This document shows, one piece after another, positions 42,036 to 56,031 of a stretch of DNA of 64,000 nucleotides. The DNA comes from Nitrosopumilales archaeon (lineage in GTDB: Archaea; Thermoproteota; Nitrososphaeria; Nitrososphaerales; Nitrososphaeraceae), in assembly GCA_044507735.1 (NCBI GenBank), contig JBIQJB010000001.1, positions 192,001 to 256,000 on the forward strand, read 5' to 3'. A program made the position numbers and the translations under genes. Position 1 is the stretch's first letter, and every line of letters starts with the position of its first letter. The notes beneath the pieces were generated by a model. The model had not been told where the DNA came from. It searched no databases and saw nothing but the letters and a program-made list of their open reading frames with translations.

Positions 42036-42230
42036 GACTCATTTTCAACCGATTTTTGTACCTATTAAATCATCGTCTCGAAATTTGCGAAAACTCATTG
42101 TCGCAAAATCACCATTGCAGGGGAGAAACGTGCTCAATATAAGAGCTATGTGGTAGCACTCTATAAAATTTCGCAGGATGGGGAACAAATGCTAAGAATT
42201 CTTTTATATTGGACACTCTACTCCGAATGT

Positions 42231-44480
42231 ATGGAGAGAAGATCCGACAGCAACCAGGATAAAGTTCTGCAACTCCAGTTTTTGGGAAGCACCGCACAAG
42301 ATTCGCAGCCAAAGGTGGCCCTCTTTGCAGTAGATACGAAGGGTGGCATCACCACGATCAAAAAGCTACAATCTCTTGAAGGCAACAAGATCAGCCTTTC
42401 CGAATTGACCCGCAATGTGAAGGAAGGTGTCATCTATGGGTTTGGACCTGATATTGACGAGACCGAAGTAAGAAAAGAGATGTTGTTTACATTTAGGCCA
42501 AAAGAAAAGATCCGCGAGTGGACAGACACCGGTGTTATTGAAATCAACCCAAAGTGGCGCGACTGGATCCTGCCGATAGCGTGCGTCCACGGTGACGTTC
42601 ACAGATGTCGCTTTATCTTTCCACCCATCATTACTCTTGCAGGAACGAAAACACTCGCCGCAAGTTCACCAGCGGCCCGCAGTTCTACTTTTAAAATTGC
42701 GCAGGGCGTCTCTGATCAACTCCATCCAATATACCCTGAGCTTTTTCCAATCTGCGCACCTGTGTGTAATGCCGTCGTTGAAGTTTACGAAAAAACGTGC
42801 TGCTGTTTAATCCGGCCTTTTGACATAGACGCTTTGCTTGACAGGCTAAGGGAATGGCTTGAAAGAATTCCGCCGATACCTCCAATAGATCCGGAAGATC
42901 CGATCGGTCCGATACCCGGACCAGACCCTGCTCCATTTGGAAGAGAGGTTGCCAAGACTGCCAAATTGGCTCAGGCAAGCGCGATCAAGATTCCACTTGG
43001 CATCTTGCCACAGAGGCTTGTGGAAGATTACCAAACACTGTCCACATTGCCATATGAAAAGAGGCTTGAATACGTCAATACCCGCGACTACCTCTATCCG
43101 ATATTCTGCACATGCAGCTCCAGGAAAGTAGGCGAAACCCCGGTCAACGAAGACGGTGAATTCAGCCTCTGCTACTTCAAAGGACCGACAAGAAGCGGGT
43201 GCAGAACGACGTATTACTATAAGGTGAGGCAGTGGCAGGAGAACCAGTGGGTCTACATCTACGATGGCTCGACCACAAATGAGTACTTCAAGGGGTCAGA
43301 CACCGCTCATCTGCGCACATGGAAGGGGCTTGCGTGCCGGCCGGATGGAGGAATAAATCCCGGAGGAGACTTTGTAATGCTGGAAAACATTGGCTCCACT
43401 CCGAGTTGGAGGCTTGACAGCCCGACACAGGATTCAGAGTTCGGCGTATCAAGTGCGAATCCTTCGGACGGCCTTACGAACATCGGCCAACCATGGGGCA
43501 AGACGCTTCATTTTAGGCTCAAGTTCAGCGAGGGGCTAAAGGCGCTCGGAGCAAAGTATTACAGGGTTAGCGTAGTCAAGGCCAACTCTAGCGGAGATCC
43601 CGAGTTGGGAGCGGTCCCGCAGCCTCTGACAAGCCCTGTTGCCTGGAGACGCTGGATCAATGCTGGCGGCCAGATCAAGACAGAGGCAGTTACGCTCGGT
43701 CCGCTAGTAGCGCCCAACGGAGCAGGCGCACTATATTTGATACCATACGAAGCTGACGCGCCACTTGGATGGCTCTGGTTCCAGTACCATCAGACATGGA
43801 ATACCACCGCCTACGATAACGCCAAGCATCTTGTCATTGTAGAAATTTTTGACGCTAATGGCAACAGGCTCAAACCAAATGGAGCGCCCGGAGGCGATAT
43901 TGCCAAACCCTTCACATTCAGACGCTGGATCGACGAAGAAAACACCGTGGCCGTGAACTTTGCAGCGCTGACACACATGTTCCACGTCGACAATATCAAG
44001 TGCTACGGCGACATCGTCGACTTTCGCAAGAACGGGGTTCCATCAACCGCCGAATGCCAGTTCATTACAGGGTGCGCAACGGACAACTTTTCTGTCGGCA
44101 TGTATGCATTCCATGTCAACGGCTTCATGAGTAGCTATCACCTCTGGTATCACAGAGGACTCAATGGTCCGAATGTGACTCTTGAGACAGGCACCACAAA
44201 TGCACCTGCCGGCATACCTCCAATTCCAAGCCCGCTCAACTCTGCAAATGCGAAGCAGTCCAATTCAAGCACATTTGATGAAATGCTTGGACCCCACGAC
44301 AAATGCTCATTCAGCGTAGAGCTCAGAGTATATCCAAAGCACACGGATGGCTTTGGGACGATCTGGGAGTACGGCGCTTCTGACACGGCTGCAGTTGCTT
44401 TGGAAAAGGTTCTCTGCATCAGCAGTCAAGCTCTCGCGATACCTGTTCGGGAGTTGTCAAAGCCGGCACCATTGCCATAA
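42231..44480 (+). CDS. Large Cys/Pro-rich beta-rich hypothetical protein (about 750 aa)
   Basis: Long clean ORF; TTTTATATT box about 25 nt upstream of the ATG at 42231; T-rich tract after the stop. Confidence 0.85.
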   Translation: MERRSDSNQDKVLQLQFLGSTAQDSQPKVALFAVDTKGGITTIKKLQSLEGNKISLSELTRNVKEGVIYGFGPDIDETEVRKEMLFTFRPKEKIREWTDTGVIEINPKWRDWILPIACVHGDVHRCRFIFPPIITLAGTKTLAASSPAARSSTFKIAQGVSDQLHPIYPELFPICAPVCNAVVEVYEKTCCCLIRPFDIDALLDRLREWLERIPPIPPIDPEDPIGPIPGPDPAPFGREVAKTAKLAQASAIKIPLGILPQRLVEDYQTLSTLPYEKRLEYVNTRDYLYPIFCTCSSRKVGETPVNEDGEFSLCYFKGPTRSGCRTTYYYKVRQWQENQWVYIYDGSTTNEYFKGSDTAHLRTWKGLACRPDGGINPGGDFVMLENIGSTPSWRLDSPTQDSEFGVSSANPSDGLTNIGQPWGKTLHFRLKFSEGLKALGAKYYRVSVVKANSSGDPELGAVPQPLTSPVAWRRWINAGGQIKTEAVTLGPLVAPNGAGALYLIPYEADAPLGWLWFQYHQTWNTTAYDNAKHLVIVEIFDANGNRLKPNGAPGGDIAKPFTFRRWIDEENTVAVNFAALTHMFHVDNIKCYGDIVDFRKNGVPSTAECQFITGCATDNFSVGMYAFHVNGFMSSYHLWYHRGLNGPNVTLETGTTNAPAGIPPIPSPLNSANAKQSNSSTFDEMLGPHDKCSFSVELRVYPKHTDGFGTIWEYGASDTAAVALEKVLCISSQALAIPVRELSKPAPLP

Positions 44481-44569: not shown

Positions 44570-46771
44570 ATGCCGAAGTTCAAGTCAACCCAAGACATAT
44601 TGAGAATAATTGGTAACAAGGATCAAATTCGAAACTTTGGTGTCATTGCCCATGTAGACCACGGCAAGACGACCATGAGTGATAGCCTCCTCGCCGCGTC
44701 GGGCATCATTTCCCCGTCGGTCGCAGGTCAGGCGCTAGCCCTCGATTCCATGAAGTTGGAGCAGAACCGACAGATGACAATCAGAGGGGCAAACGTCACG
44801 CTATTCTACGAAACGGACGGCAAGGAATACGTCATCAACATGATCGATACACCCGGCCACATTGACTTTACCGGCAGGGTGACCCGTGCGCTGCGCGCAA
44901 TTGACGGAGTGGTCGTGGTGTCAGACTCTGTAGAGGGCATCATGACCCAGACAGAAACCGTCACCAGACAGGCACTTGAAGAGCGCGTGAGGCCTGTGCT
45001 TTACATCAACAAGATAGACAGACTCGTCAAGGAGCTAAAGCTGGGTCCAGAAGAGATGCAGAAGTGGCTTATGAACATCATCAACCACTTTAACCAGCTC
45101 GTCGATATTTATGCCGAACCAGAACTCAAGGACAAGTGGAAGGTCAGCATTCAGGGCAACAGCGTTGCCTTTGGCTCTGCCAAGGATCGCTGGGGCTTTA
45201 ATTTCAAAATGGCACAAAAGACAAAGATCAACTTTAAGGATGTTTATGATGCTTATACAAAGAATGACCCTGAGCTCATAAAGTCGCTCTCGCAGAGATC
45301 GCCTCTATCAGACGCGGTGCTTGGCATGGTGGTGGAACATCACCCGCCGCCCCACGTTGCCCAGAAATACAGGATCCCAAAAATCTGGCCGGGCGACCTC
45401 AACTCTGAAACTGGCAGGGCGCTGCTGGCATGCGACGAAAAGGGCCCTGCACTAATGATGGTGACCACCATCAACGTTGACCCTCAGGCTGGAAGGGTTG
45501 CGACAGGTAGGCTCTACTCTGGCACCATAAAGGACGGTGACGAAGTCTACCTTGTCGACGCAAAGAGGACAGGAAGGGTACAATCTGTAAACATCTACAT
45601 GGGTAACACCAGAGAAATAGTGAGCGTTCTGCCCGCAGGTAACATCCCTGCACTGCTAGGGCTTGACTATGCAGTCGCAGGCGAGACCATATCGACTGTC
45701 AAGGGCGTACAGCCTTTCGAATCGATCAAGTACGTGTCCGAGCCTGTGGTCACTATTGCAGTCGAGCCAAAGCACCCCAAGGACCTACCCAAGCTAGTGG
45801 AGGCGCTGCGCAGAATCACCGTGGAAGACCCCAACCTGATAGTCAAGATCAACGAGGAGACCGGCGAGACTCTGATGGCAGGCATGGGTGTACTTCACCT
45901 GGAGATCGCAACTTCGCTCCTGCAGGAAGCAGGCCTTGACATTGTCACTACACAACCACTCATCAACTACCGCGAAACCATTCGCTCAAAGGCCGGGCCC
46001 ATAATGAGCAAGTCGCCTAACAAGCACAACAAGATATTCCTCCGCGTCGAGCCCCTGCCAGACGACATCCTTGACATGATAAGGACCGGCAAGATTAAGG
46101 AGGACATGGACAAGAAAGAGATGGCGAAGCTCTTGAGGGACAAAGGATGGAGCGCAGACGAAGCAAGGAGCGTTGCTGCAATAGATGTAAGCGGTAACAT
46201 GCTGGTAGATGAGACCAAGGGTGTCCAGTTCCTTCAGGAATCGATGGATTCTATCCGGTCAGGCTTTGACGACGTGATCAAGAATGGCCCGATAGCACAT
46301 GAAGCAGTCAGAGGTGTCAAGTTTGTGCTACACCACTTTGTGCCTCACGAAGACCCTGCACACAGAGGTCTTGCTCAACTTATGCCTGCTACGAGGAGAG
46401 CCATGTTGGGCTCGATGCTCATCGCGGACCCTGTGCTCCTTGAGCCGATACTTGGCATTGAGATCAAGTGCCCGCAGGACCTAATCGGCGCGGTGTCAAC
46501 TGTACTTTCGGGCAAGCGTGGCAAGCTGCTCAACGTAGAGCAAAAGGGGATCATTGCAATCATGCAGGGCGAAGTGCCCGCTTCAGAAACGTTCGACCTT
46601 TCTGAAAAGATGAGAGGGGCCACGGCAGGCAAGGCGATGTGGAACACCTACTTCAAGGCCTGGCAGCCAGTTCCAAACTCGATATTCCGCACACTGGTTG
46701 CAGATGTGAGGAAGAGAAAGGGACTCAACCCTGAGCCGCCATCGCCAGACGAGTTCATAGACAAGGAATAA
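44570..46771 (+). CDS. fusA: Translation elongation factor aEF-2
   Basis: AHVDHGKTT, DTPGH, NKID, diphthamide loop HEDPAHRG. Confidence 0.98.
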   Translation: MPKFKSTQDILRIIGNKDQIRNFGVIAHVDHGKTTMSDSLLAASGIISPSVAGQALALDSMKLEQNRQMTIRGANVTLFYETDGKEYVINMIDTPGHIDFTGRVTRALRAIDGVVVVSDSVEGIMTQTETVTRQALEERVRPVLYINKIDRLVKELKLGPEEMQKWLMNIINHFNQLVDIYAEPELKDKWKVSIQGNSVAFGSAKDRWGFNFKMAQKTKINFKDVYDAYTKNDPELIKSLSQRSPLSDAVLGMVVEHHPPPHVAQKYRIPKIWPGDLNSETGRALLACDEKGPALMMVTTINVDPQAGRVATGRLYSGTIKDGDEVYLVDAKRTGRVQSVNIYMGNTREIVSVLPAGNIPALLGLDYAVAGETISTVKGVQPFESIKYVSEPVVTIAVEPKHPKDLPKLVEALRRITVEDPNLIVKINEETGETLMAGMGVLHLEIATSLLQEAGLDIVTTQPLINYRETIRSKAGPIMSKSPNKHNKIFLRVEPLPDDILDMIRTGKIKEDMDKKEMAKLLRDKGWSADEARSVAAIDVSGNMLVDETKGVQFLQESMDSIRSGFDDVIKNGPIAHEAVRGVKFVLHHFVPHEDPAHRGLAQLMPATRRAMLGSMLIADPVLLEPILGIEIKCPQDLIGAVSTVLSGKRGKLLNVEQKGIIAIMQGEVPASETFDLSEKMRGATAGKAMWNTYFKAWQPVPNSIFRTLVADVRKRKGLNPEPPSPDEFIDKE

Positions 46772-46956
46772 GAGCACTCTCCCCCTCCTCCCCCTCCGCT
46801 CATTTTTGTGCCGCTTTTTCAGGCCATGACTAGATAATGTCGTACGTTATGATTTGTTGGAAATAGCTCATGAGCAAATGACTATGCCATCACCATGACG
46901 TTCGTCATGACGCTCAAGGGACACAAGAACCACTATATCGTCAAGCTGCTGAGAGG
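46768..46956 (+). repeat. Direct repeat copy 1 (aEF-2 3' end, spacer and cas1 5' stub)
   Basis: Shares ATAAGAGCA, GCTCATTTTTGTG and ATTTGTTGG with 47622-47804; 49 nt identical (46899-46947 = 47747-47795). Confidence 0.9.
46772..46820 (+). terminator. Probable aEF-2 terminator
   Basis: GAGC...GCTC around a pyrimidine tract, then TTTTT and a second TTTTT. Confidence 0.5.
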
Positions 46957-46959
46957 TAT
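46907..46959 (+). pseudogene. cas1: cas1 (casposase-like) remnant 1: first ~17 codons
   Basis: MTLKGHKNHYIVKLLRG, same as the start of remnant 2. Confidence 0.7.
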
Positions 46960-46969
46960 CGTTGTTCCA

Positions 46970-47536
46970 TCACGCGTGTTCGAGCAGCTCGGTTCGATAC
47001 TTCGGAGCAAGTGCCATGGCCTTCGCTTTGAACTCTGCTTGTGCTGCTTCATCAAGCATAGGTGGAGGCGTTGTGCGGGTTGCGACCGGTACACCAGCCT
47101 CCATGAAGAAATCCTCCTGACCGGGCGGTGAACATATGCAAAGCATTCTCACGGGCTGAGAGGAGGAGTTGTGAAACTGGTGCGGCGCGTTTGCTGGGAT
47201 ATTGATCGTCTCACCCGCCCGCACGGCACGTTTCGTGCCGCGAAAGGTAGCCTCAAGTTCGCCCTCAAGCATGATGAAAGTTTCTTCGAAGTCGTGACGG
47301 TGTGGAGGTGGTCCGCCACCCGGGGGTATATGCATGTCGATCAGGCAAAAGCGGCCTGACGTGTCTTTACCTGTGAGAAGGATGGTGTACGTATCTCCAA
47401 CCACTCCAATGTGAGGAAGTTTCTGATTGGTGTTTGGCTGGGCAATGGCGAGATCGCGTTTAAGATTATCGGATGGTAAGATTGCTGAAGCTGGCGGCTC
47501 CGGCATATTTGTTTTTTTGGACATTCTGCGCTTCAA
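46970..47536 (-). CDS. Cupin-domain protein (quercetinase-like); alternative ATG at 47524
   Basis: PPGGGPPPHRHDFEETF and IPANAPHQF cupin motifs. Confidence 0.9.
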   Translation of the reverse strand: MKRRMSKKTNMPEPPASAILPSDNLKRDLAIAQPNTNQKLPHIGVVGDTYTILLTGKDTSGRFCLIDMHIPPGGGPPPHRHDFEETFIMLEGELEATFRGTKRAVRAGETINIPANAPHQFHNSSSQPVRMLCICSPPGQEDFFMEAGVPVATRTTPPPMLDEAAQAEFKAKAMALAPKYRTELLEHA

Positions 47537-47621
47537 TAGACAAATGGCACCTCCAACTAATCAAATTATCGAAACATGATTCTCTATCAAAATTGTAGGT
47601 TGTGGATTTAATTGACTATTG

Positions 47622-47804
47622 ATAAGAGCAGTTTCCTTCACCCTACCCCGGCTCATTTTTGTGTCGCCTTTTAGGTTCGGCTATATCATGTTGTATGTTA
47701 TAATTTGTTGGAGATAGCTTATCAATAGATGGCATAGCCATCATATCGTTCGTCATGACGCTCAAGGGACACAAGAACCACTATATCGTCAAGCTATTGA
47801 GAGG
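47622..47804 (+). repeat. Direct repeat copy 2
   Basis: See copy 1 (46768-46956). Confidence 0.9.
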
Positions 47805-48070
47805 ATATGGAGCATCAAAAAGCCCGAATAATAACAAGGTTGTTTCGAAAGGAGCTAGGGATGAATTCACAGGCCCGCAAGAGATTGAAGAATGGTTTGT
47901 GACACAAATTCCGTATGAACGGATTGAAATAGCCGACAAGGTGTACGTGTCGACTGATGTTATACAACTGCTAGTTGATCATAACATAATGTGATTTTAT
48001 TGGATTTGCTTAGTAAGCCTTTTGTCAACATGAACAATATCGTGGCTAGTCTTACTTGCACAAACTATGA
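47755..48070 (+). pseudogene. cas1: cas1 (casposase-like) remnant 2: N-terminal ~105 codons, frameshifted
   Basis: MTLKGHKNHYIVKLLRGYGAS...EEWFVTQIPYERIEIADKVYVSTDVIQLLVDHN, then a shifted frame NVILLDLLSKPFVNMNNIVASLTCTNY; aligns by eye with remnant 3. Confidence 0.8.
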
Positions 48071-48177
48071 GGGATTGATCTAATGTGCCATCAGTGAATT
48101 AGTAGAGAAGACGGCAGTTCGTCAGTTTCATGTACAGCGTCCTAACCTGTCTGCTCTCTGCCTCGCCGCTCAGACCG

Positions 48178-48672
48178 CTACATCCGGGAAGCAGTAGAAG
48201 GCTCTGCTGGCGCCGCCTTGCCAAAGTAGGCCTTGACATGTGGCCTGTACATGTAATAGAGGATTACTGCGCTGATGATGATGATGCTTACAATAGCTCC
48301 TACATTTCCAGTCACCAGCGAGACCGAATTCAAAACTATACTGACAACTGCCAGCACAACAGTCAAGGCCCAAGCCCAGGACTTGCCCGTTAAAAGGCCG
48401 TATGCGACAATGGATGAGAAGACGCCTAGACCGAGAAGCATTGCTCCAACTGCTATCGCTGCGCTGCCAATGGCGTTGGTGGGGATCTCGGAAATATCTA
48501 CACCTGGCAGCGTGTCTTGCGTCTGCTGCGATGATGTCGGACCTGCAAGCGTTGACATCACCGGTCCTAGTGCGATCATGCCTAGCCCTCCGATTACCAT
48601 GAAGCTACCGCCAATTATGTTGAGAATTGCAATAATGGTCACGCCGGTCGGGCGTGCGCAAGCTATAGTCAC
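48178..48672 (-). CDS. Four-TM membrane protein
   Basis: RPTGVTIIAIL...GKSWAW...YMYRPHVKAYF. Confidence 0.8.
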   Translation of the reverse strand: MTIACARPTGVTIIAILNIIGGSFMVIGGLGMIALGPVMSTLAGPTSSQQTQDTLPGVDISEIPTNAIGSAAIAVGAMLLGLGVFSSIVAYGLLTGKSWAWALTVVLAVVSIVLNSVSLVTGNVGAIVSIIIISAVILYYMYRPHVKAYFGKAAPAEPSTASRM

Positions 48673-48957
48673 ATGCTGTGAATGGGAGCATCGGATTTAA
48701 AGGCACTGGTCATGGCGATTATTGCATCAGCATTTTCGGAGCCCTCTCCGCTGACATGAGGATCCACATCCTCACTTACGATGACGAGTACATCATTTTT
48801 TCCTTGGAGGATACCTAAATATCACCATACGGTCTACCTTGGTGTGCGGATTTTGTTGATTGTCTGTAACCAACATTCTTTGAATTCTGGGAAGAACAGA
48901 ACCGATAGTAACGCAAGAAATCCCAGACGAGATAGCAACACTACGTACGTATTGTGT

Positions 48958-49373
48958 CTACTTCCATTCATATCCAATGGCTTTGACTTGCTGTGTCGCA
49001 GGATCAAAATCAGACTCTAGAGTCAAGATCGTTCAGCCAAGAATATTTCTGCGAATTTGTGTAGCCTGAGATCATCACCAATCCTCTTATTTTTCCGCCC
49101 TCCACCGTCCTGCCCTTTTCGTGGGCCCACCACAAGAATGTGTCTCCGTCGGAAAATGTTACAAATCCATTGTAGCTTGCATCGACGACTCCGTGGGGAT
49201 ATTGGGTCATTGTACCAAAACTCATGCTCTTTCCACTTGGAAATTTGCCTATCCCTCTTCCAATCATCAACATAGCTCAATTCTATTGTTATTCCTTCTA
49301 CGGGATGCACCTTAGTTATCCTGAACGCTACTGCATTGCCAGTCCCTTCAAAGATTTTCTGGCCTAAAGCCAT
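48958..49373 (-). pseudogene. Doubly frameshifted paralog of 52340-52759
   Basis: MALGQKIFEG...ELSYVDD, shift, GKFPSG...KYSWLND, shift, ...GYEWK-stop. Confidence 0.85.
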
Positions 49374-49670
49374 AGAAAAATGCAAATTTGCAAATTCATA
49401 AGGACTATGTTATTGGGTCTTGGTAACTTGGTGGGGGAGATCAATGTCAATTTCCTTCGCACGATCCTGCTTATCTCATGTCAAGTTACTGCCGTCTTCT
49501 TTTGCAATATTTAGTACTCTCCACTCGTTGGAATGTTTTTGCCGGTTTTTGTGAAGTTGGATCAGTGAAATGTTCCATTTTGAGTTGTTGTCTGTGTTTA
49601 TCGATAGGAACTATAAGCAGAAGGGCGCATCCACTAATCATAAATCCGACAAAGCTAACTATTCGATAGT

Positions 49671-51170
49671 ATGGAAGAGCTGCCTCAAAGAGCTTTAATC
49701 CTTCAAGGAGGCGGCGCCTTAGGTGCCTATGAGGCAGGTGCTTTCAAGGCGCTATATGAGAAACTGATCAAAGAAGACAGAGAGAGCAAGAACGCCGAAA
49801 GGCCTCTTTTTGACATCGTCGCGGGTTCGTCGATTGGAGCTGTAAACGCCTGCTTTCTAGTAAGTTACGTTCTCAATAACAAACAATCCAATCCTGAGAA
49901 GAGCATTGCGGATTGTTGGAAAGATTCCGATCAGGCTCTGGTGAACTTTTGGATCGGTCTTGCCAATCACACCTTACTAGATAATGCACCAATCCGGTTT
50001 GTATGGGATTGGATTTGGAATTCAGCTAAAGCCTACCGAGATGGATGGGTTCAGTACTGGAAAAACCTTGTCGAGATCTTTCCGGGGAGCATCAGCTTCA
50101 GAAAAGAATGGCCTTTCAGGGAGTGGTATTATTCATGGCCTGACAAGTGGGGACCGCTGGCAACAGGTGAAGGAGCAAGGCGGTATTATTCATACTGGAA
50201 TTCTTCTTTTACAGGTATCGAGGGGATTTTGACCGGGGGCATTCCTCAACCGGATTACAAATTTCTAAATGGGTTTGCTCCAGGCTTCTATCGCTTTGAC
50301 AACACTCCCTTAATCAACACCTTAAAAAGGATGTGGTATCTAAATGGCCAGCCGATATCAACAAAGAAAGGGGAACCTAGGCTATTGTTGGTTAGCGTCG
50401 ACGTGCAAGATTGCAGCTCTGCTGCGACCTTCGACAGCTACGAAAAGAAGAGAGACGGCAGTACTATAAGACATCATTTTACCGAATATGGATCGGAAAA
50501 TGAGGAGCCAAAAGTAATAGAGTACGAGGGTGTCGCTACAGATCATTTGCTTGCAAGCATGTCTACAAATCAGAGATATGAATTTCCTTCCATGCGTACT
50601 GCCGACGGAAGGCAGACACGTTACTTTTGGGACGGCGCGTACCTTAGCAATACACCATTGAGGGAAGTTATTCAACACCATCGGGACTTTTGGCTAAAAA
50701 CAGAAGGCGAGAAGAAAGTGCCAGATCTGGAAGTCTATATCATCAACCTATATCCCGCAACTGAAGCAACGGTGCCCCAAGATGCCGATTCCATCCAAGA
50801 CCGGGAGATTGATATAAAGTTCCACGATAGAACAAAGTATGACTTGAAGGTTGCTGGCATGGTAACTGACTACATAGATCTCGTGGAAAAGCTGAAGGAG
50901 CTCGCAGAATCAAAGGGATTGTCAGAACAAGTCAAGAGTATCCTTGATGGAGAAGTGGGGAAGAGCGTCAAGCGAAGCGGAGATAAGAGAAGGTATCGAA
51001 GTCTGATCGAAGGCAGGTTTGCAATCCCGAGAACTGTTCACGTCGAAAGACAGGATGATTCAAATGCAATTTATGGCAAGGCATTTGACTTTTCAGAGCA
51101 TACCGTTAAGAACTTGATCGACCTAGGCTACCAAGACGGACTCAAAGCCTATGATAAGAGTGCAGAATGA
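49671..51170 (+). CDS. Patatin-like phospholipase
   Basis: QGGGALGAY oxyanion hole, GSSIG nucleophile, WDGAYLSNTPL. Confidence 0.92.
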   Translation: MEELPQRALILQGGGALGAYEAGAFKALYEKLIKEDRESKNAERPLFDIVAGSSIGAVNACFLVSYVLNNKQSNPEKSIADCWKDSDQALVNFWIGLANHTLLDNAPIRFVWDWIWNSAKAYRDGWVQYWKNLVEIFPGSISFRKEWPFREWYYSWPDKWGPLATGEGARRYYSYWNSSFTGIEGILTGGIPQPDYKFLNGFAPGFYRFDNTPLINTLKRMWYLNGQPISTKKGEPRLLLVSVDVQDCSSAATFDSYEKKRDGSTIRHHFTEYGSENEEPKVIEYEGVATDHLLASMSTNQRYEFPSMRTADGRQTRYFWDGAYLSNTPLREVIQHHRDFWLKTEGEKKVPDLEVYIINLYPATEATVPQDADSIQDREIDIKFHDRTKYDLKVAGMVTDYIDLVEKLKELAESKGLSEQVKSILDGEVGKSVKRSGDKRRYRSLIEGRFAIPRTVHVERQDDSNAIYGKAFDFSEHTVKNLIDLGYQDGLKAYDKSAE

Positions 51171-51261
51171 CTGTGCAAAATCACTATTACTCGCTTGTCT
51201 CCTTAACGATCCTTTCTTGATGAGATATACTGTCACTACCTGAATAGTTATTTTATGATTC

Positions 51262-52169
51262 TCAATCAATTTGAAAGGAATCGAGTACTATGTTTCCTTG
51301 TCTCGTCCGTGCATATTCATCCTTTCTGATCACGCGAACAAATGTCGCTTCTTCTGCAGAAGACTTGTAAACAGCAAATTTGACTAACCCTCCGAGAGGA
51401 TTAATCTGATCATAAACTAGTGTTTGGAATGAATTATGCGTCTTGTGGGCAAGGCCTTAGTGTGATTCAGGCCCAAGGTCATTAGCGAACTTCGTAATTT
51501 TCGCAGCTAGCATGCCCCTAATTCAGCAGATCATCAACGGCATCCGACACATATCGATTGTTCATTATGTCACCTCTACCACAACGCGAGTAGTAGATAT
51601 GTCTTGTTGAAAATAATTTGACATAAGTTCTAAAATAGACATATCCAACTCGTGCTTCTACGGTGAGAAATTCGCACATGTTAGTCGAGGTATTGACTTT
51701 TGCAAGATTCTGGCTCAATCCTGTAATGACATCGCTCAAATTATACCTGTCAAGACTCTTCAGAAAGGTAGTCTGGATCTGAAGCTTGGCGGCCATTAAC
51801 TTTCTTTTGCAAATAAGGACCCTTTTCTTTCAAAGAGCATCATACTGTCCGTTGTGTGACTAGTTTCAGTTGGATTTGACATTATTCTGAGCAGCTTGGA
51901 ACCAAATTGCCAAATGAATCTGACAAGATTACATTGATGTCATCATTTGTGAGTAGCGTTATTGCATCAGTTGAAACATAAGCCTTGCCGGCAATTGTAA
52001 TCTGTTCAGAAGGAATGTGCACTATGAACCATTTTTCCATTTCAGCCTGCCCTTGTAAACCTGGTGATGTTGTCTTTCAGGCATGTTCAGTTTGCTATGA
52101 GGCCAATGGAAAAGTCGTAGCCATGCACCAACTCACATTGCAGTTTGTTCAATTGCCCATCAGCGTCAA
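51262..52169 (-). pseudogene. cas1: cas1 (casposase-like) remnant 3: nearly full-length, multiple stops and frameshifts
   Basis: Stitched frames LTLMGN*TNCNV / LVHGYDFSIGL / EKWFIVHIPSEQITIAGKAYVSTDAITLLTNDDINVILSDSFGNLV / AAKLQIQTTFLKSL...FLTVEARVGYVYF...SDAVDDLLN*G / LAHKTHNSFQTLVYDQINP; matches Cas1 E..A..Y, N.LLNYGY and H...L.YD..EP. Confidence 0.85.
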
Positions 52170-52339
52170 CGCATCATGTGCAGCATGTAATTGCTGCGGC
52201 TCTACTCCAGTTCGCCCTATTTTTTGTGCTCAGACTGAGGGAATCAATCTTTGGAAGAGGGAATAAGAAAACAAATCAAACGCTTTGTGCCCAAAAATCC
52301 GCGTTGGACACAAGGCGACTAATCAGAGTGGAATTGCAT

Positions 52340-52759
52340 TTACTTCCATTCATATCCTGTGGACTTGATTTGCCGTGTTGCAGGGTCAAACTCTGTCTCT
52401 AGGACAATGACAAGGTTGTTCAACCAAGAATATTTCTGCGAATTTGTGTAGCCTGAGATCATCACCAATCCTCTTATTTTTCCGCCCTCCACCGTCCTGC
52501 CCTTTTCGTGGGCCCACCACAAGAATGTGTCTCCGTCGGAAAATGTTACAAATCCATTGTAGCTTGCATCGACGACTCCGTGGGGGTATTGGGTCATTGT
52601 ACCAGAACCCGTGCTCCTAGCATTTGGAAACTTGCTCAATCCCCTCAGCTCCTCGACAAAGCTCAGTTCCATTGTCGTTCCTTCCACAGGGTGGACCTTC
52701 GTTATCTTGAAACTTACTACGCTGCCAGTCCCTTCAAAGACTTTTTCGTCAAAGACCAT
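52340..52759 (-). CDS. Hypothetical beta-rich protein ending GYEWK
   Basis: Intact 139-aa ORF from the ATG at 52759; paralog at 48958-49373. Confidence 0.8.
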   Translation of the reverse strand: MVFDEKVFEGTGSVVSFKITKVHPVEGTTMELSFVEELRGLSKFPNARSTGSGTMTQYPHGVVDASYNGFVTFSDGDTFLWWAHEKGRTVEGGKIRGLVMISGYTNSQKYSWLNNLVIVLETEFDPATRQIKSTGYEWK

Positions 52760-53231
52760 GACAAAGTGCAGAGTTTGCAGTTCATAAAGATTGCTTTCCG
52801 AGTTCTGGATTTTCTGACGGGACATCTAGGTCGCTAGCAACCGGCTAACCACGCACTATTGATTGGTGCCCAAGTTGTGATTCAAGAGTACCGTTGGCGT
52901 TTGGAGTTTGATTAAGATCGGGCCGAATCACATCGGTGACATCATTCGCTCTCATGCAGGAATCGATCTGAATCTTGCATAGTATGAAGTTGAATCACGC
53001 ACGAGACAGGTGGCGGTTTACTCAAAAGACGTACAAGAACCAACAGTAAATGGACTTGGTATCGGAACAAACAAAGTGCAGGTATTGAATGAAGGCGATT
53101 CGACAAAGATGAAGCCTCTTGAATGGATGGAAAAGAATTAATCGCGCGAAGTCCATGATATACTGAGAGTGCAGGGCCTTAACTGGATGGCGAGTGGAAA
53201 GGGTAGCTGCTGGATAATCATGACAGTTGCA

Positions 53232-54014
53232 TCAAAGTATGGCGGCAGCCTTTAGGAACATGATGACAGCTACAAAGATCAACACAACGCCAATGAGCAG
53301 CTTCAGAGCGTTGGCACTAAATCTGGTTGTATATTTCGCGCCGATATACCCACCTATCATAGCTGTCGAACCCATCAGGCCAAGCACCAAAAAATCTACA
53401 TTTCCATTTAGCAAATGACCTGCCAAGCCCGCCGCACCCATGATCGAAGATGCTGCTAGGTTTGTCCCAATAGCTACCTTTGGCTCCATCTTTAGCACCC
53501 CGATCATTGCCGGCATCCTTATGCTACCAAGTACTAATCCGACCATGCCGCCAAGAAAACCAACACCAAAGCCAATTGAGGATTCAACACCTAGATTTGG
53601 TTTACTCGCGGCCTTCTGTTCGCCCTTTCCTTTTTGAGAGCTAGTGATTAGCGAGTATGCTTCATAGGAAACAATCAAACCAATGATGACAAAGAGAAAA
53701 GTTACTGGCACATGCTGTGTCAGCATAGAACCAAGAAAAGCACCCGCTGCACCTGTAGCAGCCATTATTGCAAAGATTCTGAGGTGCACGTTATTCTGTC
53801 GGAAGTGTCTGATTGCTGCGGTCATGGCTCCCAGAGTGCTAATGCCCATGTTCGTTCCAGCAACCATAGCTACCGTAGCTCCTGCGCCTCCAGTCGTTGT
53901 GAGAATCAGTGGAAATCTAAGCACTCCGAGAACCAGGCCTAAAAGACCTCCTACAAATCCAATGGCTAACCCAAGTGAGCCAAGCATGATAATCGTGAAT
54001 AGGTCAATTGGCAT
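53232..54014 (-). CDS. TauE/SafE-family (sulfite exporter-like) membrane protein
   Basis: Two internal repeats GFVGGLLGLVLG / GFLGGMVGLVLG, AIGTNLA, GGYIGA. Confidence 0.88.
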   Translation of the reverse strand: MPIDLFTIIMLGSLGLAIGFVGGLLGLVLGVLRFPLILTTTGGAGATVAMVAGTNMGISTLGAMTAAIRHFRQNNVHLRIFAIMAATGAAGAFLGSMLTQHVPVTFLFVIIGLIVSYEAYSLITSSQKGKGEQKAASKPNLGVESSIGFGVGFLGGMVGLVLGSIRMPAMIGVLKMEPKVAIGTNLAASSIMGAAGLAGHLLNGNVDFLVLGLMGSTAMIGGYIGAKYTTRFSANALKLLIGVVLIFVAVIMFLKAAAIL

Positions 54015-54179
54015 TTTGTTCTATCAGGATATTATCGGAAGCAATAGAGCCTATAAAAGCAGATATTCACACCACGCGCAACGAAATGATCTCCGCGCGG
54101 GATGGAACGGTCAATCAAATTGCTTCCACGACACGAGTTTGCAACTGCGCTAAAATTCATGCTGGATAAAATGAGAAGA

Positions 54180-54545
54180 CTATCCCTTGCTTTTCGACCA
54201 CTTTATCATCCAGTCGATCAGCGACATGACAGATTCAACGAGCTCTTGTCCTTTTGGAGTCAGACGATATTCGACACGTGGTGGGATTTCGTTATATGCC
54301 TGCCTGCTCAGGATGCCGCTCTTTTCTAGTTCCTTGAGCCTAGAAGCCAGAGTCTTGCTGCTAATCCCTTTCAATGCCCGCCGAAACTGTTTGTACCTGA
54401 CAGGTCTTGTGGTGCAGCAGAGAGGTATCAGAATTTCAAGTGTTCCCCTTTTGGTGATAATTTTGCGCAGCTTGGCTGTCTCTGCCATCAAGGAATCAAC
54501 ATCGTATCCGCAGCCTTCGATCATTGGGAGCTTCTTGGTTTCCAT
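54180..54545 (-). CDS. HxlR-family winged-helix regulator
   Basis: ISSKTLASRLKELE, YNEIPPRVEYRLTPKG; Cys in GCG and LCC. Confidence 0.92.
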   Translation of the reverse strand: METKKLPMIEGCGYDVDSLMAETAKLRKIITKRGTLEILIPLCCTTRPVRYKQFRRALKGISSKTLASRLKELEKSGILSRQAYNEIPPRVEYRLTPKGQELVESVMSLIDWMIKWSKSKG

Positions 54546-54574
54546 GGTGAAACTAACGATAGCAGAGTATCCTT

Positions 54575-54613
54575 GACAAGTTAAATAGTTTCCCAAGTAA
54601 ACCTAAGCGGTGA
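54575..54613. promoter_or_regulatory. Candidate shared TATA box (TTAAATA, 54581-54587), imperfect palindrome and SD (GGTGA, 54609-54613) in the 72-bp divergent intergenic region
   Basis: GACAAG-TTAAATA; TAGTTTCCCAAGTAAACCTA; GGTGA 4 nt before the ATG at 54618. Confidence 0.5.
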
Positions 54614-54617
54614 TAAA

Positions 54618-54704
54618 ATGGCAAAGAATAACCAACCAAAAGAAGCGGTAAAGGAATGCTGCCCAGATGGTTCGTGCAAAGGTTGTTGCTGCTGTTGCTG
54701 TTAG
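54618..54704 (+). CDS. 28-aa polycysteine micropeptide MAKNNQPKEAVKECCPDGSCKGCCCCCC
   Basis: Manual translation; SD GGTGA; TATA box upstream; GGTGGTGAACAACC hairpin-like sequence and T6 tract just downstream. Confidence 0.75.
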   Translation: MAKNNQPKEAVKECCPDGSCKGCCCCCC

Positions 54705-54875
54705 GCGGTGGTGAACAACCCCTCTTTTTTCCAAAAAACCACGCGATCGGCAACAGCCGCAAATGTGCCGTAGCAAAAACAACCAACTTGCAGCACCCGA
54801 TACTAAACACCGAGTACGCAGCGGAACTCCAAACCCTAATACTTATATTAAGTTTATAAAACACCGTTATATTGT

Positions 54876-55649
54876 ATGGCATTTCTAGAAGTAAAGGATC
54901 TGCGCGTCAGCATCGACGGCAAGGAGATCCTCTCTGGACTCAATTTGAGCGTTGAAAAGGGTGAGGTCCACGCGATCATGGGACCAAACGGTTCTGGCAA
55001 GAGCACTCTTGCAAATGCTATCCTTGGTCACCCCAAGTACAACGTCGAGTCTGGCGATATACTCGTAAATGGAGAGAGCATCCTCGACCTGTCTACCGAT
55101 CTTCGAGCAAGGAAGGGTCTTTTCCTCGGATTCCAGTACCCTATAGAAATCCCTGGCGTTGGCTATAGCCACTTTTTGAGGAATGCTTACAACACTCTCG
55201 GCAAGGAAGACAAGAACCGCGAAGTGTTCCTCACTGTACGCGAGTTCCACGAGTACGTCAAAAAGAATCTTGACGCGGTAGGGCTTGACAAGTCGTTCTT
55301 GAGTCGATACCTGAACGAAGGGTTCTCCGGCGGGGAGAAGAAGCGCTCAGAAGTAATGCAGATGCTTGTCTTGAAGCCAAATATTGCGATACTCGACGAA
55401 CCGGATTCAGGGCTTGACATTGATGCCGTCAAGGCGGTGGCTGAAGCAATAAACAAGCTGATAGATACTGGTGCTGGTGTGATCGTGATTACACACTATG
55501 CTAGGATCCTGCGTTACTTGACAAAACTCGATCGCGTCCACGTGGTTGCAAAGGGAAAAGTAATCCGATCGGGTGGCAAGGAGCTTTCAGAAGAGCTGGA
55601 AACAAAGGGCTATGGCTGGCTTGGGATAGAAGAAGGCAAGCCGGAATAA
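54876..55649 (+). CDS. sufC: Fe-S cluster assembly ATPase SufC
   Basis: GPNGSGKS, FQYPIEIPGV, NEGFSGGEKKR, DEPDSGLDID, ITHY. Confidence 0.96.
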   Translation: MAFLEVKDLRVSIDGKEILSGLNLSVEKGEVHAIMGPNGSGKSTLANAILGHPKYNVESGDILVNGESILDLSTDLRARKGLFLGFQYPIEIPGVGYSHFLRNAYNTLGKEDKNREVFLTVREFHEYVKKNLDAVGLDKSFLSRYLNEGFSGGEKKRSEVMQMLVLKPNIAILDEPDSGLDIDAVKAVAEAINKLIDTGAGVIVITHYARILRYLTKLDRVHVVAKGKVIRSGGKELSEELETKGYGWLGIEEGKPE

Positions 55650-56031
55650 TAGTGAGACTGTAATTCACAGCTCTTCACTCCTCTTTTCTCTTTCGAATAT
55701 TTCCGAAATTCGGACGATGATCATCAACATAGACTCACGTGATATTGTCCAAAAACGCGACTTCTGCCTGCAGAGCGTAATCCTGGTTCTCAGTGATATT
55801 TGTCCGGGCAGCAGGTGCTGCAACCATAATGGGATACTCCGACTCGATGATTGATCTTTCAATTTCTCATCTACAAACCATGTATTCCTGCTTAGACAAC
55901 GGCAATGACAACAGGCATTATTCGGAGTTGCTATTGCAAGAATAGCTGTATATCAATTGTCTTGCAAGTGGCTGCACGCGTGAACGAATATACAATTGTT
56001 TTAAATATGGTTTGGAGGCAATTTACAGCAA

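Follow-up and report, generated by a model that had tools for sequence, protein, structure and literature searches.

We find that a diverged direct repeat beginning at the stop codon of the gene for archaeal elongation factor 2 (aEF-2) most probably represents the cas1-proximal ends of family-1 (thaumarchaeal) casposons from two generations, stacked at the last 15 nucleotides (nt) of that gene. The repeat lies in a 64,000-nt stretch of DNA, hereafter the window (positions 192,001 to 256,000 of contig JBIQJB010000001.1, assembly GCA_044507735.1), from a Nitrosopumilales archaeon with a 2.33-Mb, 97% complete genome. Each repeat copy would consist of a target-site duplication (TSD) of the aEF-2 end, a casposon terminal inverted repeat (TIR), the cas1 leader, and the start of cas1. 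The CRISPR adaptation module is presumed to descend from casposons, of which few have been studied.

The two copies (46768-46956 and 47622-47804) lie 854 nt apart in the same orientation and are 79% identical over 189 nt by BLAST alignment. A search of the whole genome returned exactly two copies (E 1.3e-36). Both open with ATAAGAGCA, which in copy 1 holds the aEF-2 stop codon (46769-46771), both contain GCTCATTTTTGTG, and both end in ATGACGCTCAAGGG..., the start of cas1. Their longest identical run is 49 nt (46899-46947 and 47747-47795). An earlier note on this DNA had reported a repeat at this place that starts in the aEF-2 TAA, ends in a cas1 start, and shares 49 identical nt with its second copy; each of these observations was borne out, the last as one uninterrupted run. 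The features that carry the argument are the following.

44570..46771, plus strand: aEF-2 gene (Pfam GTP_EFTU, EFG_III, EFG_IV, EFG_C and others)
46757..46773, plus strand: TSD1, ATAGACAAGGAATAAGA, the end of aEF-2 including the stop codon
46772..46956, plus strand: TIR_A, with core CCCCC...TTTGTGCCGC, the cas1 5' leader, and the first 17 cas1 codons (from 46907)
46970..47536, minus strand: Cupin_2 gene (PF07883, E 4.5e-20), the sole gene of unit A
47520..47610, minus strand: region upstream of the cupin gene, which may be the right TIR of unit A in degenerate form
47611..47627, plus strand: TSD2, ATTGACTATTGATAAGA, an eroded target copy matching TSD1 at 12/17 positions
47625..47804, plus strand: TIR_B, the second repeat copy (nhmmer core E 6.6e-5, long E 2.4e-16)
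47755..48068, plus strand: cas1_B remnant, a 79-codon open reading frame (ORF) followed by ~27 codons in another frame

The aEF-2 product matches five EF-G/EF-2 domain families, with two overlapping Pfam hits in addition (the Pfam scan covered 23 ORFs between 42 and 64 kb of the window), and in orthologues from 44 loci the last 99 amino acids (aa) are 81-99% identical. The casposon target is the last 15 nt of this gene, and TSD1-like sequences of 15-17 nt stand at both element ends in the relatives G107, G118, and G113 (20 nt, 95% for these three) and in G219 (18 nt, 83%). The eroded TSD that the earlier note suspected just before copy 2 is present in the window as TSD2, whose closeness to TSD1 is shared by only 28 of the 127,968 17-mers of the window (2.2e-4); 16 of its 17 nt are conserved in the related metagenome contig L116. 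Casposon ends distant from aEF-2 are still preceded by sequence resembling the aEF-2 end, e.g., GAGTTCATAGATACGGAGTAA, at loci L025 (G101, 1.136 Mb), L027 (G163, 0.257 Mb), and L032 (G101, 0.465 Mb). Either the casposase chooses look-alike targets, or pieces of arrays were relocated together with their TSD. Reverse-complemented TSD copies (e.g., TTCCTCCTTGTGTCGAT) were also seen before a direct TIR core, at relative positions 902 and 2943 of L066 (G101) and 503 of L069 (G070); they would arise if the 15-bp spacer that separates facing TIRs were flipped.

The repeated sequence itself corresponds to the ends of intact casposons in relatives. The core of TIR_A and TIR_B is that of the 44-nt perfect TIR (TAAAAACACTCTCCCCCCTTTTTACGAGGGAATTTGTGCCGCTT) of an 11.3-kb element in G101 (L025), which carries the TSD TTYAGCGACAAAGAGTAAAA at both ends and encodes Cas1, HEPN and NACHT-pentapeptide proteins, a protein-primed-type PolB (pPolB; PF03175), and small genes upstream of pPolB. 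The equivalent region forms the 187-nt TIR of a 5.6-kb element that adjoins aEF-2 in G107 (L031), where 20-nt direct repeats equal to the aEF-2 end flank the element and the two arms, 91% complementary, include the cas1 leader and first codons. The G107 arms are identical to codon 19 of cas1 and diverge beyond it, and such long TIRs may have arisen by TIR extension as in protein-primed replicons. In the DNA retrieved for the G147, G003, G143, and G163 loci, inverted-repeat searches returned no far ends. In the window, nhmmer recovers TIR_A with models of both the core (E 2.5e-12) and the long TIR (~100 nt, built from 13 TIRs; E 3.5e-20). The target site, the G101 pPolB, and the match to a published HEPN-encoding family-1 casposon point to family 1 as the source of the window remnants. 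The intact G101 element has two same-orientation right-hand TIRs (L025 14469-15143; 72 nt, 83%, and 44 nt, 100%) that enclose a single DUF3237 gene and a TSD-like sequence, an arrangement that mirrors the TIR-gene-TIR unit of the window.

The cas1 assignment of the sequence at the repeat end was confirmed in copy 2, where the N-termini of seven open frames of 356-379 aa, from five relatives, share 59-77% identity with the 79-aa ORF (47755-47994). The three full-length frames that were scanned (G147, G101, G003) are PF01867 Cas1 proteins (E ~1e-47). By tblastn the ORF matches residues 1-78 of the G147 Cas1 at 77%, and tblastx extends the remnant through 47988-48068. For copy 1, the earlier note had spoken of a cas1 stub. 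The cas1 start is present there, but since the long TIR of G107 likewise includes it, the 17 codons may belong to the inner stretch of a long TIR instead of being a truncated gene. The note's statement that an oppositely oriented gene follows each repeat also holds, with the cupin gene after copy 1 and a DUF2127 gene after copy 2, separated from it by the ~105-codon cas1 remnant.

We then compared aEF-2 downstream DNA from 43 of the 56 other matching genomes of the genus and one genome of a neighboring genus; of the 13 genus genomes excluded, six are unpublished and seven have little or no DNA downstream of aEF-2. Across the 45 loci, window included, a hidden Markov model (HMM) of the TIR core places a core directly after the aEF-2 stop in 31; of the 14 loci without one, two stop at the edge of a contig. 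The model was trained on 23 of these 31 loci and two further TIR copies, so those 23 are members partly by construction. A further same-orientation core (E <= 0.01) was found in eight of the 45 loci (the window, G107, G113, G118, G182, G101, G061, and G070) with differing genes between the cores, which goes against a one-off duplication or artefact without variable cargo in relatives, the outcome that the earlier note would have taken as refuting its proposal. Support independent of the HMM construction comes from inverted TIR copies at the far unit ends: inverted TIR/TSD/direct TIR junctions occur at the aEF-2 loci of G118, G219, G113 (weak), and G107 (very weak, E 2.4), and away from aEF-2 at L025 and L032 of G101 (the latter weak, E 0.15).

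Three of these relatives carry a first unit that lacks cas1. The G118 unit is 1.47 kb long with two ORFs (minus-strand TIR E 7.5e-4; TSD 20 nt, 95%), the G219 unit 1.03 kb with two ORFs (minus-strand TIR E 1.2e-5), and the G113 unit 2.87 kb with five or more ORFs (minus-strand TIR E 0.11, weak; TSD 20 nt, 95%). Their ORFs are small and mostly of unknown function, and the units are bounded by TIR cores and near-perfect TSDs. They provide the best evidence for non-autonomous casposon derivatives, of which we found no description in the literature searched, including the main text of PMC6563490. A search of the genus for the cargo of the G118 and G219 units returned no second TIR-bounded copy. 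A zf-C2H2/DUF2795 gene of the G219 unit (L055, 822-1220) has a 90% identical counterpart at the DNA level in G101 (L110, 0.785 Mb), near which there is no TIR or TSD; it is a second cargo gene found in different contexts in different species.

Following published casposon biology, we propose that the casposase Cas1 would make staggered cuts around ATAGACAAGGARTAA, that a TIR-bounded element would be joined at the cut, and that gap repair would duplicate 15 bp. The gene-proximal target copy would stay valid, so that a later element could land there and push the earlier one outward, after which the outer TSD copies and TIRs would decay. Serial addition at one site, as the earlier note had proposed, is supported by the TSD copy before both repeats and by the eight stacked loci, but it has already been published.

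The age of the copies can be gauged from the related metagenome contigs L115 and L116, which have the same layout at 87% identity. The aEF-2 gene of L116 is 92% identical in nucleotides to that of the window (8% different) and the cupin gene 94%, and the conserved set as a whole (cupin, its upstream region, and TSD2) spans 91-94%, with the upstream region at 91%. The drifting sequences span 59-74%, with TIR_A at 72-73%, TIR_B at 59-72%, and the cas1_B remnant at 74%. By these comparisons both copies predate the split from the L116 lineage, and the TIRs have since drifted at about the neutral rate. Because the cupin gene, its upstream region, and TSD2 were conserved while the TIRs drifted, we regard the cupin gene as a domesticated cargo gene kept since that split. 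Conservation does not support the idea that the TIR core was retained to serve as terminator of aEF-2, as the core is only 73% identical to L116 versus 92% for aEF-2; within the core, only the T-run and TTTGTGCCGC persist.

The 49-nt run has a different history. Over the inner 66 nt, the window copies are 92% identical to each other, whereas the orthologous pairs are 72% and 61% identical and the two L116 copies 65%. Because the window copies are closer to each other than the orthologous pairs are, a pattern of concerted evolution, the run is attributable to recent local gene conversion in this lineage and not to a conserved signal. The repeat as a whole is not a recent local duplication, since TIR_A shares 82% identity with the aEF-2-proximal TIR of G216 and 72% with TIR_B.

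Unit A, measured from TSD to TSD, is 854 bp long. Its cupin gene has an orthologue (93% aa identity) only in G101 among 201 family genomes sampled, the next best match being 46%. At the DNA level, window 46907-47624 is 87% identical over 719 nt to a G101 block that includes the identical junction of the 17-codon cas1 stub with the cupin 3' flank and stops at a TSD2-like sequence. The G101 block sits among ordinary genes, 600 kb from aEF-2. At the same position G070 has an empty site and G219 an intermediate state, relative to which the G101 insertion is ~1.07 kb, with ~140 unrelated nt to either side of the cupin module and without a clean TSD. The G101 copy shares four derived substitutions within the TSD2-like sequence, indicating that the old TSD2 was carried along. 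The cupin gene has a dN/dS of 0.10 and a dS of 0.36 between the window and G101, versus a dS of 1.59 for the aEF-2 3' ends of the same genomes. These values indicate that the cupin module was shared horizontally with G101 and that the gene is under selection. The cupin upstream region is probably the cupin promoter, and TSD2 would have moved to G101 because the cupin gene and its probable promoter were kept together. An exact 32-nt cupin word was found in three metagenome contigs and in no species-representative genome. Contigs from the RNA library X19 overlap part of the cupin gene, which alone does not demonstrate transcription.

Beyond copy 2, the island contains further remnants and cargo.

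48178..48672, minus strand: DUF2127/DUF7144 membrane protein (Pfam), island cargo
49023-49385, minus strand: orf120 (120 aa), no Pfam match
49671..51170, plus strand: patatin-like phospholipase (PF01734, E 6e-16), island cargo
51277..52169, minus strand: cas1_C pseudogene, Cas1 residues ~1-301 with stops and frameshifts, inverted
52170..52252, minus strand: TIR_C, of another TIR subfamily
52252..52268, plus strand: tentative TSD3, TGGAAGAGGGAATAAGA, matching TSD1 at 11/17 positions with the 3' 9 nt exact, a candidate distal array edge
from 52283: possible further TIR core, CTTTGTGCCC, not detected by nhmmer and weak

The array therefore reads aEF-2, TSD1, TIR_A, cupin (minus), TSD2, TIR_B, cas1 remnant, DUF2127 (minus), orf120 (minus), patatin (plus), cas1_C (minus), TIR_C (minus), and possibly TSD3. 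The cas1_C pseudogene was recognized from a PF01867 match (26.9 bits, with internal stops), four tblastn pieces, and inspection of the sequence by eye, and it is ~50% identical to cas1_B over residues 37-78. TIR_C shows no resemblance to either TIR_A (z -1.0) or TIR_B (z -1.2), whereas two TIRs of G101, one in L025 (from 15160) and one in L032, are similar to it (z 3.2-3.3). No intact cas1 was found in the 97%-complete genome, which holds only remnants of 17 (A), ~105 frameshifted (B), and ~300 stop-containing (C) codons. PF03175 gave no match above cut-off in the genome (best 13.7 bits, within a 916-aa frame on another contig), and the Pfam scan of window ORFs gave no polymerase match. As no intact casposase or pPolB is left in the genome, the array is dead and nothing here is movable now. 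A tblastx comparison of the island (46772-56000) with 49 loci detected no synteny except cas1, the TIRs, and the DUF2127 gene, so that it is the weak TSD3, with a closeness to TSD1 reached by 117 of the 127,968 17-mers, that would mark the distal boundary.

In G167 (L043), too, the DNA downstream of aEF-2 has a DUF2127 homologue adjoining a cas1 stub. The patatin-like phospholipase, lying between casposon remnants, may be defense-type cargo; the other aEF-2 loci retrieved yielded no homologue of it. A second direct repeat of ~455 nt (48951-49404 and 52333-52790), whose copies lie 3.38 kb apart and share a 225-nt core that is 95% identical, covers paralogous minus-strand ORFs of 120 aa (49023-49385) and 161 aa (52340-52825) without Pfam matches, with one copy inside the island and the other just past TIR_C and the tentative TSD3. 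Directly upstream of aEF-2 lies a 776-aa ORF (42150-44480), likewise without a Pfam match.

How unit A came to consist of a casposon end and a single gene is less clear than the identity of its left end. Deletion within a larger element, in place or before insertion, has about an even chance of being the origin, and entry as a mini-element mobilized in trans is a less probable one. The latter corresponds to the earlier note's non-autonomous mini-casposon, of which the left TIR is clear and cas1-less units do exist in relatives, while the right TIR is marginal. If unit A was indeed inserted in trans, the aEF-2 site would be a landing pad that accumulates cassettes, an explanation that we consider less likely than not. 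The cas1-less, TIR- and TSD-bounded units behind aEF-2 in G118 and G219, and less clearly in G113, favor it, as do the 719-nt match of the cupin module to a non-aEF-2 locus of G101 that is empty in G070 and the low cupin dS, which argues for horizontal sharing. The right end was tested by local pairwise alignment against 15 TIRs, with z from 300 shuffles and a plus-strand control. The reverse complement of 47520-47607 resembles four of the 15 (z 2.0-2.8) and falls below z 2 for the other 11, a marginal result: 4-13 of the 300 shuffles reach these scores, and the plus-strand control gives none. nhmmer with the ~100-nt model misses the right TIR, with no minus-strand match at 47520-47610 even at E 100. 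Moreover, the G101 copy moved with its flank, as its four shared derived substitutions indicate, unlike simple casposition, and its ~1.07-kb insertion lacks a clean TSD. Conservation of TSD2 and the right end is equally explained by a cupin promoter role, and there is no sign of recent activity in a genome without a casposase. A broader version, in which the Nitrososphaera aEF-2 3' end is a casposase-fed landing pad where cas1-less, TIR-bounded units with one to a few accessory genes, mobilized in trans, were stacked gene-proximally like CRISPR spacers beside the leader and passed between species, with some cargo fixed and retained by selection, is in our judgment possible and rather doubtful; the same holds, jointly with it, for a cupin promoter built from an old element end.

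Other explanations concern the repeat as a whole. A single long-TIR element of the G107 type, in which TIR_A is the cas1-distal arm, cas1_C and TIR_C form the other arm, and copy B is nested, would match the G107 layout (aEF-2, an arm with a 33-codon stub, 5.2 kb, inverted cas1 and arm) and its length (5.58 kb versus 5.48 kb here). It is nevertheless improbable, given that TIR_C is unlike TIR_A and TIR_B and belongs to another subfamily whereas the G107 arms are 91% alike, that copy B has its own TSD, and that cas1_C and cas1_B are ~50% identical over residues 37-78. A plain segmental duplication of the aEF-2 3' flank without transposition would account for two same-orientation copies 854 nt apart with no inverted partner detected in the window. 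We disfavor it strongly, for elsewhere the duplicated sequence forms the TIR of intact casposons with flanking TSDs, TIR_A resembles the G216 copy more than it resembles TIR_B, both copies were already in the L116 lineage, and the same stacking with different intervening genes recurs in eight of 45 loci. As for an assembly artefact joining reads of two strains, many metagenome-assembled genomes of the genus do break here; contigs of G155, G194, and G173 (L040, L041, L038) end 3-145 nt from the aEF-2 stop (1-145 nt past it when others are included), which fits repeated casposon DNA breaking assemblies. The copies are only 79% alike, though, contigs of runs X5, X9, and X13 from three studies bridge all three junctions (aEF-2/repeat, repeat/cupin, cupin/copy 2), and L115 and L116 have the same order; as far as contigs show, this explanation is refuted and its chance negligible. 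The contigs of these runs reported no joints and hence give no evidence for excision or an empty site, rare forms not being visible in contigs. One loose end at 46857 in run X5 was considered as a strain variant of unit A and rejected, since it equals the TIR_B continuation of an L116-type strain; judged from its sequence, it is a misplaced paralogue.

Several points weigh against two stacked generations of casposon ends, the reading we prefer. The core HMM (E < 10) yields two plus-strand matches only in the window, with no clear inverted right TIR for unit A or B. TIR_A occurs at the same position in G216, so that even the "youngest" unit is old. TSD3 and the fourth TIR core are both weak, and the newest-next-to-gene order of insertion is taken from published models. 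Most of the genus has the first 50 nt of the TIR, which on their own could be read as the native aEF-2 3' flank, a reading opposed only by the inverted TIR copies at the far element ends.

These results highlight the locus as a fossil record, from soil ammonia oxidizers, in which repeated integration by Cas1 at a single site is well resolved. They show how far such a record decays, with neutral TIR drift, gene conversion between copies, and cargo outliving its transposon as a selected host gene. The comparative result may outweigh the window itself, as about two thirds of the loci examined in the genus have a casposon TIR core behind aEF-2 and at least two to three genomes have cas1-less TSD-flanked cargo units. 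If mobilized in trans, these units would extend casposon biology to non-autonomous elements and would be a natural substrate for integration assays. Should the aEF-2 end prove to be a landing pad, it would provide the first non-autonomous casposons and the first Cas1-mediated gene-scale acquisition.

The resemblance to spacer or cassette acquisition drawn in the earlier note extends to the polar serial addition at one site beside a fixed "leader" and, for CRISPR adaptation, to the shared Cas1 chemistry. The locus differs from integrons and CRISPR arrays in lacking attC/attI, IntI, short regular repeats, and a position-tied expression logic, and its units are transposon remnants of unequal size (0.85 to >4 kb). 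No integrase was matched by Pfam in the 23 ORFs scanned between 42 and 64 kb, which sets the locus apart from an integron-like cassette array, and instead of a family of short regular repeats (25-40 nt), as in a CRISPR array, there are two 189-nt repeats 854 nt apart. A further comparison is with MITE- or Ds-like non-autonomous derivatives of DNA transposons, which keep their TIRs, have lost the transposase, and are mobilized in trans. The G118, G219, and G113 units similarly keep TIRs and TSDs without a transposase; they differ in carrying intact unrelated genes, and unit A of the window has no clear second TIR.

Among published systems, the solo TIRs of Methanosarcina mazei casposons, which outnumber complete elements across strains, are likewise single TIRs stranded at a preferred site after decay (PMC4779613). 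They belong to another casposon family with another target, and the ends in the window differ in being stacked, each with its TSD copy, with intact genes between them. Tn7 islands at attTn7 behind glmS, with which casposons have been compared (PMC4046053, PMC4779613), also arise by site-specific insertion downstream of an essential gene, and re-use of the site builds islands of partly inactivated elements and accessory genes; the transposase is unrelated (TnsABCD versus Cas1) and the mechanism of target recognition is another one. The locus also matches the family-1 casposons themselves, for which aEF-2 is the described target and tandem arrays have been reported, including the tandem pair NitNF5-C1/C2 and the HEPN-encoding NitEve-C1 integrated in ef-2 (PMC4046053, PMC6563490); a HEPN-encoding family-1 casposon in a Nitrososphaera genome is described in section 11 of PMC6563490. 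Shared features are the aEF-2 3'-end target with the gene left intact, a ~15-bp TSD, TIRs, a Cas1 casposase, and tandem re-use of the site, and the genes of the intact G101 relative agree with the published set (Cas1, HEPN, pPolB, and, upstream of pPolB, small genes). The window differs in that it has no intact element or pPolB, three casposase remnants, one of them inverted, and one unit that consists of a TIR and a cupin gene. Serial casposon addition at ef-2 is thus already known; the genus-wide setting of such an array is new, and the structure, with a cupin gene that is still functional trapped between casposon ends, has one less usual feature.

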